A stretch of DNA of 64,000 nt from the NCBI RefSeq assembly GCF_054482595.1, contig NZ_CM137008.1, one strand, 5' to 3'. The notes beneath the pieces are model-generated. The model was given only the letters and a program-made list of their open reading frames with translations, searched no databases and had not been told where the DNA came from. Below, in pieces: positions 22,579-43,638 of this stretch; position 1 is the first letter of the stretch; each line of letters begins with the position of its first letter. Both the position numbers and the translations under genes were made by a program.

Positions 22579-23124
22579 TTAGATAGTTCCGCAAACCTTC
22601 TCAATCAATTCCGCCGGGAATTGCATCGACTGCATGATGTGTTCGATCATGCTGCATTTACGGCCGGTGTTGGTGTTGGTGATCACCCAATACGGCGTGC
22701 CTGGCACATGTTTCGGCTTGGTCTGATTACCATTTTTCAGCAGCGTTTGTTCATCTGCCGCAAAGTAAACGCGTGTACGACCGTGCAACGATTCCGTTGC
22801 TTCGGCAAACGCCTGGGCGTCAAGAGAATATAGTGTAGACAACAGCAGCATAAAGCGATTGACCGCTCGCTTTTGCTCTGCGTATTCATCCGAAAGCAGA
22901 AGTTCACGCATTGCGCGAACCTTGTCTTTAATCGTTTTGACCGGCTTCGCTTCGACGATAGCAGGTGACGCAACGCGAACCTCTTTCGTCACCGGAGCAG
23001 CAGGCTGTGATGCGGCGGAAAATTTCAACATACGCCGTAAAATGTCGGATGCGCTCTCGCCGATATGCTTAGTGTGGCTGGCAATATAGCTGTAGAGTTC
23101 ATCATCAACTTCAATCGTTTTCAT
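22579..23124 (-). CDS. seqA: Replication initiation negative regulator SeqA
   Basis: 181 aa from [17 protein letters not shown] (ATG at 23124); the ORF-track 226-aa version is an extension. Confidence 0.93.
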
Positions 23125-23308
23125 CTTAATCCAGTGCAGTGTCTTAGCTGAATACAAGTCGCCAGGAGTATATGAATAAATCCCGGCAGCGGATAGCGTC
23201 AAGCCTGGCTTGCAGAAAAACTCGGAATAAACCTTATTTGTTGCAGCCCTGTGGCACAATGGTCAACATAATACCCTAACCCGACAACGCGAAAAAAAGA
23301 ACTTTGCC

Positions 23309-24073
23309 ATGAAATTGAATATCCGCGCGCAAACTGCACAAAACCAGCACAATAATTCTCCCATCGTTCTTGTCCATGGTCTGTTTGGCAGCCTCGACAA
23401 CCTTGGCGTACTGGCTCGCGATCTGGTAAACGATCACAATATCATCCAGGTTGATATGCGTAACCACGGTCTTTCACCGAGAGATCCGGTAATGAATTAC
23501 CCGACGATGGCGCAGGATCTTGTTGATACCCTGGATGCACTGCAGATCGACAAAGCAACATTTATCGGTCACTCCATGGGCGGTAAAGCGGTAATGGCAC
23601 TTACTGCACTGGCCCCCGATCGCATCGATAAACTGGTGGCGATCGATATCGCACCGGTCGACTATCACGTACGCCGTCATGATGAGATTTTCTCGGCTAT
23701 CAACGCGGTCAGTGAATCGGACGCACAAACTCGCCAGCAAGCAGCAGCAATAATGCGCCAGCATCTTAATGAAGAAGGGGTGATTCAGTTTCTGTTGAAA
23801 TCTTTTGTTGACGGGGAGTGGCGCTTTAACGTGCCGGTATTGTGGGATCAGTATCCGCATATTGTGGGTTGGGAGAAAATCCCGGCATGGGATCACCCTG
23901 CCCTGTTTATCCCTGGTGGTAATTCTCCGTATGTTAGCGAGCAGTACCGTGATGATTTACTGGCACAATTTCCACAGGCACGGGCGCATGTGATTGCAGG
24001 CGCGGGTCACTGGGTCCATGCTGAAAAACCGGATGCGGTATTACGCGCTATCCGTCGCTATCTCAATGATTAA
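23309..24073 (+). CDS. ybfF: Alpha/beta hydrolase esterase YbfF
   Basis: 254 aa with GHSMGG lipase/esterase motif; recognised as YbfF. Confidence 0.9.
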   Translation: MKLNIRAQTAQNQHNNSPIVLVHGLFGSLDNLGVLARDLVNDHNIIQVDMRNHGLSPRDPVMNYPTMAQDLVDTLDALQIDKATFIGHSMGGKAVMALTALAPDRIDKLVAIDIAPVDYHVRRHDEIFSAINAVSESDAQTRQQAAAIMRQHLNEEGVIQFLLKSFVDGEWRFNVPVLWDQYPHIVGWEKIPAWDHPALFIPGGNSPYVSEQYRDDLLAQFPQARAHVIAGAGHWVHAEKPDAVLRAIRRYLND

Positions 24074-24076
24074 CGC

Positions 24077-24096
24077 AACTGATTAAAAACCCAGCG
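24077..24096 (+). promoter_or_regulatory. Candidate LexA box upstream of ybfE
   Basis: aaCTGattaaaaacCCAGcg has the CTG-N10-CAG spacing of an SOS box; ybfE is known as LexA-regulated. Confidence 0.35.
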
Positions 24097-24212
24097 TCCG
24101 CGTCGCTTTCCGCGCGTGGGCGTTGGCGTGACTCATCGCGCTGATGTATTATGGCGCGCTATCCATCCGGGCAGAGGCCTGGCTGATTGTTTCCCCCGAA
24201 GTCACCAAGATC

Positions 24213-24506
24213 ATGGCCAAAGAACAAACGGACCGTACGACATTAGATCTGTTCGCGCACGAGCGTCGACCGGGACGACCGAAAACAAATCCGCTTTCGC
24301 GCGATGAACAGCTGCGTATTAATAAACGCAACCAACTAAAACGCGACAAAGTACGTGGCCTTAAGCGTGTCGAACTGAAGCTGAACGCGGAAGCTGTCGA
24401 GGCGCTGAACGAGCTGGCGGAATCGCGCAATATGAGCCGTAGCGAACTGATCGAAGAGATGTTAATGCAGCAACTGGCGGCGCTGCGTAGTCAGGGCATC
24501 GTTTAA
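24213..24506 (+). CDS. ybfE: LexA-regulated protein YbfE
   Basis: 97 aa from [24 protein letters not shown] (ATG at 24213); the ORF-track 120-aa version is an extension. Confidence 0.85.
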
Positions 24507-24645
24507 ATTTCCACTTTCATGTAGCACAGTGTGCAGTCCTGCTCGTTTGCTGATTCCGCAAGACTGCCTGTTCTGCTATGATTGCCTTTATCCGTGGGCA
24601 ATTTTCCACCCCCATTTCAATAAGTTTCAAGAGGTTATTTCACTC

Positions 24646-25176
24646 ATGGCTATCACTGGCATCTTTTTCGGCAGCGACACCGGTAATACCGAAAATATCG
24701 CAAAAATGATTCAAAAACAGCTTGGTAAAGACGTTGCCGATGTCCATGACATTGCAAAAAGCAGCAAAGAAGATCTGGAAGCTTATGACATTCTGCTGCT
24801 GGGCATCCCAACCTGGTATTACGGCGAAGCGCAGTGTGACTGGGATGACTTCTTCCCGACTCTCGAAGAGATTGATTTCAATGGCAAACTGGTTGCGCTG
24901 TTTGGTTGTGGTGACCAGGAAGATTACGCCGAATATTTCTGCGACGCATTGGGCACCATCCGCGACATCATTGAACCGCGCGGTGCAACCATCGTTGGTC
25001 ACTGGCCAACTGCGGGCTATCATTTCGAAGCATCAAAAGGTCTGGCAGATGACGACCACTTTGTCGGTCTGGCTATCGACGAAGACCGTCAGCCGGAACT
25101 GACCGCTGAACGTGTAGAAAAATGGGTTAAACAGATTTCTGAAGAGTTGCATCTCGACGAAATTCTCAATGCCTGA
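24646..25176 (+). CDS. fldA: Flavodoxin 1
   Basis: 176 aa from [20 protein letters not shown] (ATG at 24646). Confidence 0.93.
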
Positions 25177-25381
25177 TGTGATGCGGCGTAGACTCATGTC
25201 TACGCCGTATTAATAGATAATGCCAATCAAAATAATTGCTACAAATTTGTAACTTTTGCTGTTGTACCTGTACAATGTCCCGGTGTTCAAGTGGCCTTGC
25301 CGTTGTAAATGTAAGCTGTGCCACGTTTTTATTAACAATATTTGCCAGGGACTTGTGGTTTTCATTTAGGCGTGGCAATTC

Positions 25382-25400
25382 TATAATGATACGCATTATC
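25382..25400 (+). promoter_or_regulatory. Fur box in the fur/uof promoter (autoregulation)
   Basis: tATAATGATAcgCATTATC matches the GATAATGATAATCATTATC consensus at 15 of 19 positions and overlaps a TATAAT -10. Confidence 0.6.
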
Positions 25401-25472
25401 TCAAGAGCAAATTCTGTCACTTCTTCTAATGAAGTGAACCGCTTAGTAACAGGACAGATTCCGCATGACTGA
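25386..25472 (+). CDS. uof: Upstream-of-fur leader peptide Uof (28 aa)
   Basis: ATG at 25386 encodes MIRIISRANSVTSSNEVNRLVTGQIPHD; its stop (25470-25472) overlaps the fur start. Confidence 0.7.
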   Translation: MIRIISRANSVTSSNEVNRLVTGQIPHD

Positions 25473-25911
25473 TAACAATACCGCCCTAAAGAAAGCTGGC
25501 CTGAAAGTAACGCTTCCACGTTTAAAAATCCTGGAAGTTCTTCAGGAGCCGGACAACCATCACGTCAGTGCGGAAGATTTATACAAACGTCTGATCGATA
25601 TGGGTGAAGAAATTGGTCTGGCTACGGTATATCGCGTACTGAACCAGTTTGACGACGCTGGTATCGTCACCCGCCACAATTTTGAAGGCGGTAAATCCGT
25701 ATTTGAACTGACACAGCAACATCACCACGATCACCTGATCTGCCTCGACTGCGGCAAGGTTATCGAATTTAGTGATGATTCCATCGAAGCGCGTCAGCGT
25801 GAAATTGCCGCAAAACATGGCATTCGCCTGACTAACCACAGTCTCTATCTTTACGGTCACTGTGCCGAAGGCGATTGCCGCGAAGATGAGCACGCGCACG
25901 AAGGCAAATAA
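25465..25911 (+). CDS. fur: Ferric uptake regulator Fur
   Basis: 148 aa, MTDNNTALKKAGLKVTLPRLKILEVLQ...; His-rich C-terminus. Confidence 0.95.
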   Translation: MTDNNTALKKAGLKVTLPRLKILEVLQEPDNHHVSAEDLYKRLIDMGEEIGLATVYRVLNQFDDAGIVTRHNFEGGKSVFELTQQHHHDHLICLDCGKVIEFSDDSIEARQREIAAKHGIRLTNHSLYLYGHCAEGDCREDEHAHEGK

Positions 25912-42597: not shown

Positions 42598-43638
42598 TTG
42601 AACATAGACACTCGCGAAATCACCCTGGAGCCAGCAGACAACGCGCGTCTGTTGAGCCTGTGCGGCCCGTTTGATGACAACATCAAGCAGCTCGAACGCC
42701 GTCTCGGCATCGAGATCAATCGCCGCGATAACCACTTTAAACTGACCGGCCGTCCGATTTGCGTCACCGCTGCGGCAGACATTCTGCGTAGCCTGTATGT
42801 CGATACAGCCCCGATGCGCGGTCAGATTCAGGATATCGAACCGGAACAGATCCACCTTGCGATTAAAGAAGCGCGAGTACTGGAGCAAAGTGCGGAGAGC
42901 GTGCCGGAGTACGGCAAAGCGGTCAATATCAAAACCAAACGCGGCGTAATTAAGCCGCGCACGCCAAACCAGGCGCAGTACATCGCCAATATTCTCGACC
43001 ATGACATTACCTTCGGCGTTGGCCCGGCGGGTACGGGTAAAACCTACCTGGCAGTGGCTGCGGCAGTTGATGCCCTGGAGCGTCAGGAGATTCGCCGTAT
43101 TCTGCTGACTCGTCCGGCGGTCGAAGCCGGTGAGAAACTGGGCTTCCTGCCTGGCGATTTAAGCCAGAAAGTAGACCCGTATCTGCGCCCGCTGTACGAC
43201 GCGCTGTTTGAAATGCTGGGCTTTGAGAAAGTTGAGAAACTGATTGAGCGCAACGTTATTGAAGTCGCGCCGCTGGCCTATATGCGTGGTCGTACGCTGA
43301 ACGACGCGTTTATCATTCTCGATGAGAGCCAGAACACCACCATCGAACAGATGAAGATGTTCCTGACCCGTATCGGTTTTAACTCAAAAGCGGTTATCAC
43401 CGGCGACGTCACACAGATCGACCTGCCGCGTAATACTAAATCAGGCTTACGTCACGCCATCGAAGTGCTGGCCGATGTCGAAGAGATCAGCTTTAACTTC
43501 TTCCACAGCGAAGACGTGGTTCGTCACCCTGTGGTGGCGCGTATCGTTAACGCCTATGAAGCCTGGGAAGAAGCCGAACAAAAACGAAAAGCGGCGCTGG
43601 CGGCAGAACGCAAGCGCGAAGAACAGGAACAAAAATGA
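42598..43638 (+). CDS. ybeZ: PhoH-like ATPase YbeZ
   Basis: 346 aa from a TTG at 42598 preceded by aagaggaa; Walker A GPAGTGKT. The ORF-track ATG at 42559 would give 359 aa; the start is ambiguous. Confidence 0.85.

Follow-up and report, generated by a model that had tools for sequence, protein, structure and literature searches.

The published SOS box upstream of Escherichia coli ybfE: a weak LexA-like site overlapping the ybfF stop-codon cluster and a conserved hairpin

Does LexA control ybfE of E. coli through the SOS-box-like motif that lies just behind the preceding gene, ybfF, and if not, why is the motif there? The DNA that we analysed is a stretch of 64,000 nucleotides (64 kb) from RefSeq assembly GCF_054482595.1, contig NZ_CM137008.1, called the window below. 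It is E. coli sequence: the 1.2 kb around the motif are matched in 5,424 of 5,426 complete genomes, and across 24060..24215 the window does not differ from K-12 MG1655. The genes run in the order pgm (−), seqA (−), ybfF (+), ybfE (+), fldA (+) and fur (+), with the motif between ybfF and ybfE:

23309–24073, + strand: coding sequence of the esterase gene ybfF, ending with the stop codon TAA at 24071–24073.
24077–24096, no strand assigned: LexA-box-like 20-mer AACTGATTAAAAACCCAGCG, the published ybfE SOS box (K-12 coordinates 712015..712034).
24213–24506, + strand: coding sequence of ybfE, 97 aa, from the RefSeq start ATG at 24213; Pfam RHH_1, E 1.7e-10.

The RefSeq product names are 'esterase' for ybfF and 'LexA regulated protein' for ybfE, and the Pfam match makes YbfE a ribbon-helix-helix (CopG-type) protein. 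The ATG at 24213 is the conserved start of ybfE as well as the RefSeq one. A 120-aa frame from ATG 24144 (24144..24506), which corresponds to an older ybfE start, was discarded because this ATG sits inside the conserved block around the −10 hexamer of the ybfE promoter. Conway et al. (PMC4161252) place the gene in an operon, ybfE-fldA-uof-fur, served by three promoters, and describe ybfE as expressed in log phase and shut off in stationary phase.

The window reads aaCTGattaaaaacCCAGcg at 24077..24096, with CTG at 24079–24081 and CAG at 24092–24094 separated by exactly 10 bases, and the 20-mer begins three bases past the ybfF stop and 136 nt ahead of the ybfE ATG. The original prediction, that a CTG-N10-CAG motif with the spacing of a LexA operator lies immediately after ybfF and upstream of ybfE, thus agrees with the DNA in sequence, coordinates and spacing. 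A full-text search of the literature returned no match to the 20-mer; its 16-mer core CTGATTAAAAACCCAG was matched in one paper, and is identical to the ybfE LexA box in PMC2585105, where the box is credited to Fernandez de Henestrosa et al. 2000. The published operator therefore does not map elsewhere, and the motif is none other than the weak LexA (SOS) box that earlier work had reported for E. coli ybfE: the same site as in K-12, identical in its DNA and with an agreeing heterology index (HI). That ybfE is known as LexA-regulated, as had also been claimed, holds in the sense that both the RefSeq product name and tables of SOS genes say so. What we add to the published box is its context, namely a centre near −73, an overlap with the ybfF stop-codon cluster and with the arm of a hairpin, and an occurrence in few genera. 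The feature itself is known and ordinary, and because it was described as early as 2000 and gave ybfE its RefSeq product name, finding it again has little discovery value.

For scoring, we reconstructed a Lewis-type matrix of HI values, using the 18 published LexA boxes of PMC3009722 (Table 4). With this matrix, the ybfE box scores 10.82, compared with a published value of 11 that PMC11228462 quotes from Courcelle et al. 2001. The score lies below the limit of about 15 under which boxes are reported to bind LexA, as quoted in PMC11002266, and polB, at 12–13, binds; yet it is weak. The Kd values of native operators span 8–170 nM. Leave-one-out scoring of the training boxes gave 11.8 for dinB and 12.6 for polB. 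The largest penalties of the ybfE box fall on A at position 6 (3.43), G at position 20 (2.12) and T at position 7 (1.82): the box reads CTGA where CTGT is usual, an A at position 6 occurs in none of the 18 boxes, and the right flank is poor.

The box is the top-scoring 20-mer in the window, although narrowly, with five other sites between 11.4 and 12.3, among them scores of 11.44, 11.62, 12.19 and 12.25. First-order Markov simulations of 64 kb held a mean of 0.35 equally good sites, with at least one in 32% of simulations, which corresponds to about one such site per 190 kb, or roughly 25 per genome. A symmetrised matrix gave the box an HI of 13.16, with 0.57 sites expected and at least one in 45% of simulations. 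The box is therefore present as described, but by sequence statistics alone it is no more than chance would supply. Taken alone, CTG-N10-CAG is common: the window has 27 copies where dinucleotide shuffles lead one to expect 13.4, and none of 100 shuffles reaches 27. This excess probably comes from codon usage, as CTG (Leu) on one strand is CAG on the other, and the bare pattern is therefore useless as an indicator of SOS boxes in E. coli coding DNA. Elsewhere in the window, GCCTGTATGTCGATACAGCC at 42791..42810 forms a neat CTGTAT-N4-ATACAG palindrome with an HI of 12.25; it maps about 58 nt inside the coding sequence of ybeZ (PhoH-like), and in all likelihood resembles a LexA site by chance, an illustration of the background rate.

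A score in the binding range, reached by the best site of the window at an intergenic position upstream of a gene that is listed and named as LexA-regulated and whose box is published, is what a working operator could look like. LexA bound at about −73 would then lower transcription of ybfE-fldA-uof-fur in the Escherichia/Citrobacter lineage, for instance through interference with the contacts that polymerase makes upstream, and its fast dissociation would release the operon early in the SOS response. We consider such a weak operator the main rival of the account preferred below, though on balance less likely, and the chance rate of one equally good site per 190 kb already speaks against it. 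The ybfE box has the CTG-N10-CAG frame and AT-rich centre in common with the strong operators of recA, sulA, umuDC, sbmC and tisB/istR, the gammaproteobacterial LexA motif being TACTG(TA)5CAGTA. These strong operators have HI values of 0.3–6 and carry CTGT, in contrast to the 10.8 and CTGA of the ybfE box, which in its HI is more like the weak genuine boxes of polB (~13), dinB (9.4), ftsK (9.2), uvrD (8.5) and dinG (8.6). It also differs in distance: all 18 boxes of PMC3009722 lie at most 100 nt upstream of their genes, whereas the ybfE box starts 136 nt upstream.

Whether LexA bound there could act on transcription depends on where the promoter lies:

24123–24152, + strand: ybfE sigma-70 promoter TTGGCG-18-TATTAT, with the −35 hexamer at 24123–24128 and the −10 hexamer at 24147–24152, located by consensus scan.

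This is the sole promoter-like site that the consensus scan found in 23900..24300; no promoter overlapping the box was found there. Genomic SELEX placed a constitutive ybfE promoter of RpoD holoenzyme, with the same hexamers, between ybfF and ybfE (Shimada et al., PMC3946193). We compared 80 orthologous loci, drawn from Enterobacteriaceae and Erwiniaceae; in those of Enterobacteriaceae, two blocks, CGTTGGC and CTGATGTAT(G/T)ATGGCGCGCT, hardly change at all. The site thus has recognisable hexamers, a spacer within 16–18 bp, RpoD binding and conservation, and because of its near-invariant blocks and the SELEX match we take TTGGCG-18-TATTAT to be the real ybfE promoter, from which we infer a transcription start at ~24159. 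The prediction tool used by Culyba et al. gave no sigma-70 promoter for ybfE, and the kinetics of their reporter were odd (PMC5999292).

Between the last base of the box, 24096, and the −35 hexamer at 24123 lie 26 bp, so that the centre of the box falls at about −73 from the inferred start. The box is therefore outside the core promoter, and outside the zone in which a repressor would exclude polymerase; as judged against this inferred start, it neither overlaps the −35, the −10 or the start nor lies just downstream of them. No second LexA-like site with which it might cooperate was found in 24040..24249, where the next best HI is 21.5. A box clear of the sole recognisable conserved promoter tells against a working operator. 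A LexA dimer may bind this box weakly and dissociate quickly and, since it would sit near −73, 26 bp above the −35 of a promoter that the holoenzyme uses unaided, its binding would be expected to leave ybfE transcription largely or wholly unaffected.

Several other elements were considered by eye and set aside. The A-run, at about −70 to −74, is too far upstream for an UP element; a Fur box has 9 of 19 consensus matches, and its matching part is not conserved; a CRP site has 3 of 5 matches per half; the spacing of an IHF core is one off; and the RYYAAAY and GCAC parts of a SoxS/MarA marbox do not fit. As separate observations on the promoter region, the invariant stretch around the −10 is a block of 20 nt, GCTGATGTAT(T/G)ATGGCGCGCT, at 24139..24158, much longer than the hexamer alone would call for, and TGAT(G/T) occurs three times in the spacer and leader, at 24080, 24142 and 24184. 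As YbfE is a ribbon-helix-helix protein, this block or these repeats could, speculatively, be its own operator.

The work of Fernandez de Henestrosa and colleagues in 2000 is said to have assigned ybfE to LexA on the basis of Northern blots, with lexA+, lexA(Def) and lexA(Ind−) as the genetic backgrounds. A ybfE promoter-gfp fusion, in a study that measured 28 native LexA operators, was UV-inducible (PMC5999292), as would be expected of an operator. RNA-seq from 2024 that included a lexA3 strain tells against one: azidothymidine (AZT) induced ybfE 4-fold with a lexA-dependence ratio of 0.74 in this single condition, meaning that lexA3 did not reduce ybfE expression and that the induction is LexA-independent (PMC11228462). 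Strong SOS genes, by comparison, have a LexA dependence of 6.6- to 50-fold, and even the genes with weak genuine boxes have a reproducible lexA dependence after AZT of 1.7- to 6.9-fold. Ciprofloxacin likewise brought no induction of ybfE in two studies, the log2 changes in K-12 being 0.09 to −0.43 (PMC11002266), and the ybfE transcript not being among those changed in EHEC 2 h after ciprofloxacin. A tiling-array study does not have ybfE among its motif-bearing UV-induced genes, in a search that spanned only 100 nt upstream (PMC3009722). Taken at face value, ybfE would respond to DNA damage mainly through LexA-independent routes.

If LexA binding had maintained the box, the two half-sites should be retained among relatives. 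We compared 60-mers that run from upstream of the box to just beyond the −35 hexamer in the 80 loci; 72 of them are distinct, and the 45 that were aligned have no gaps at all.

24079–24081, no strand assigned: left CTG half-site, within TAACTGATTAA; T and G present in every one of the 45 distinct orthologous sequences, C in 29 of 45.
24092–24094, no strand assigned: right CAG half-site, in the 5′ arm of the hairpin and paired with TTGG of the −35 region; C in 32, A in 30 and G in 26 of 45.

Numbered along the box, the invariant positions are T4, G5, A9–A12 and C19, followed by CGTTGGC, and those that vary (C3, C16, A17 and G18) are critical for LexA. At the orthologous position, only 15 of the 80 loci have the two triplets intact, all of them Escherichia, Citrobacter or Yokenella, and beyond these genera the site is not conserved. 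The HI, 10.8 in Escherichia, ranges from 13.5 to 25.8 outside it: 13.5 in Citrobacter (AACTGATTAAAAACTCAGCG), 15.1 in Yokenella, 15.5 in Enterobacter (TTG in place of a triplet), 17.1 in Salmonella (CAT), 21.3 in Kluyvera (ATG..CAT) and 25.8 in Klebsiella oxytoca, where nothing is recognisable at the position. All Escherichia that were sampled retain the triplets, as do most Citrobacter, which is the pattern that an operator confined to this lineage would leave; the 20-mer is also unchanged in every E. coli strain sampled and in E. albertii, against some variation in the bases around it, with substitutions too few for significance.

Salmonella is informative here. Its ybfE goes up with nalidixic acid, and SOS boxes were found for polB, uvrD, dinG, yigN and dinP (dinB) but not for ybfE (PMC8072944). 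Such induction of ybfE from a locus with no SOS box fits the CAT at the orthologous site, and the loss of the box with the damage induction retained is a further point against an operator. Together, the position of the box, its poor conservation and the recent expression data suggest that LexA has little control over ybfE. The claim that the box is positioned to regulate ybfE therefore survives in part: the box is the published one, with an HI in the binding range, while its centre near −73, its restriction to few genera and the LexA-independent induction by AZT are at odds with a regulatory role.

What is conserved at the box instead follows two other elements. On the left, the whole family shares TGATTAAAAA, whose distance from the −35 hexamer is constant even though the length of the ybfF C-terminus varies. 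The sequence TAACTGATTAA around the left half holds stop codons in all three frames, and in several genera the ybfF stop is, by the alignment, the TGA of cTGAtt. On the right, the box runs into a stable hairpin:

24091–24126, + strand: GC-rich hairpin with arms at 24091–24102 and 24115–24126, the 3′ arm holding part of the ybfE −35 hexamer (TTGGCG).

An 81-nt segment folds with a minimum free energy of −30.6 kcal/mol (z −2.8), its stem spanning about 24089..24129, and the hairpin itself starts 16 nt past the ybfF stop codon. Since the inner stems vary from genus to genus, RNAalifold recovered no more than a trivial 5-pair helix from the 60-column alignment; we therefore specified a 12-pair helix by hand (alignment columns 22–33 with 46–57, that is, window 24091–24102 with 24115–24126) and tested it against shuffles and slid controls. 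This helix is paired in 77.6% of the cells of the 45 sequences, compared with 27–55% when the partner is slid. Four of its pairs have changed on both sides, and none of 500 shuffles reaches the observed pairing or covariation; the shuffles ignore relatedness, so that the slid control is the more telling of the two. Read as + strand RNA, the helix has 80 G-U wobbles, compared with 26 for the − strand. Folding is also better on + for 31 of the 45 sequences, so that the structure most likely belongs to RNA, at the 3′ end of the ybfF mRNA. Within the helix, CCAGCG from the right half of the box pairs with the invariant CGTTGG, and the variants seen at box positions 16–18 (CAG, CAA, CGG) are those that pairing with UUG permits. 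To judge from this pairing, the E. coli CAG is explicable without LexA.

A stable, GC-rich and covarying hairpin near the ybfF stop, conserved across Enterobacteriaceae, recalls an intrinsic terminator, from which it differs in that the U-run is missing on the + strand, where the stem is followed by GUGACUCAUCG. For this reason, it is not a textbook terminator of ybfF. Read on the minus strand, the hairpin is followed by GUUUUUAAUCA / GTTTTTAATCAG with the U-run UUUUUAAUCA, at a place where no gene ends. A simple terminator scan called the hairpin on neither strand, and an Rfam scan of 23000..25600 returned no family, only a snoRNA match at E 0.72 that is meaningless. A 3′-end structure of ybfF and an antisense terminator are the candidate roles. 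We note a promoter-like sequence on the minus strand at 24630..24601 in the ybfE-fldA spacer, TTGAAA-18-GAAAAT, which matches the consensus at 9 of 12 positions only; transcription from this site, should it occur, would run antisense to ybfE and towards the hairpin and the T-run at ~24129..24080.

These features allow the reading that TGATTAAAAA and the hairpin form a functional element of their own, unrelated to LexA: an intrinsic terminator on the minus strand, made of the hairpin and the GUUUUUAAUCA behind it, that would end a transcript antisense across ybfE, or a site for another factor such as YbfE. The invariance of T4, G5 and A9–A12 in 45 of 45 sequences, at a gap-free distance from the −35 despite a variable ybfF C-terminus, is what such an element would require, and the minus-strand fold is still stable (mean −17.6 kcal/mol). 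The antisense version could draw on the promoter-like site in the ybfE-fldA spacer, and the version with YbfE on the TGAT(G/T) repeats and the RHH_1 fold of the protein. We nevertheless judge this element improbable, as the wobbles and the better folding point to the + strand, the scanned region matches no Rfam family, no report of an antisense RNA was found in the literature and the minus-strand promoter has no more than its 9 consensus matches of 12.

The account towards which we lean, by a modest preference, is that the box is a weak LexA-like sequence present in few genera, a by-product of the ybfF stop/A-run block and the hairpin arm, with little regulatory effect. The left half and the A-run would belong to the family-wide TGATTAAAAA block at the ybfF stop-codon cluster, and the right half, CCAGCG, would be the 5′ arm of the conserved + strand RNA hairpin, paired with CGTTGG of the −35 region. 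Such a by-product has to be reconciled with the listing of ybfE as LexA-regulated in the literature and RefSeq, the UV-inducible reporter, an HI of 10.8 that is better than that of the genuine target polB, and the invariance of the 20-mer in E. coli and E. albertii. A more far-reaching version, which we put forward tentatively and think rather unlikely in its full form, is that the 'LexA box' is an evolutionary accident on an older, family-wide device, in which the covarying hairpin holds TGATTAAAAA at a fixed, gap-free distance from the −35; one or two substitutions in the ancestor of Escherichia and Citrobacter would then have completed CTG-N10-CAG. Candidate roles for the older device are a ybfF 3′-end structure that insulates or couples the promoter of ybfE-fldA-uof-fur, an antisense terminator, and an autoregulatory site for YbfE.

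For users of SOS data the consequence is one of caution: the place of ybfE in the LexA regulon may be doubtful, and this affects regulon lists, panels of SOS reporters and the product name.

Downstream of the promoter, the 5′ leader of ybfE (24160..24212) contains a further feature:

24167–24182, + strand: small leader hairpin CCGGGCAGAGGCCTGG, followed by conserved CTGATTGTTTCCCCCGAAGTCAC; a terminator-like match in the scan.

RNAalifold on a MAFFT alignment of this leader found no consensus structure. The CCGGGCAGAGGCCTGG stem changes between genera and is self-complementary by eye, CTGATTGTTTCCCCCGAAGTCAC is strongly conserved across them, and the region may be a leader or attenuator.
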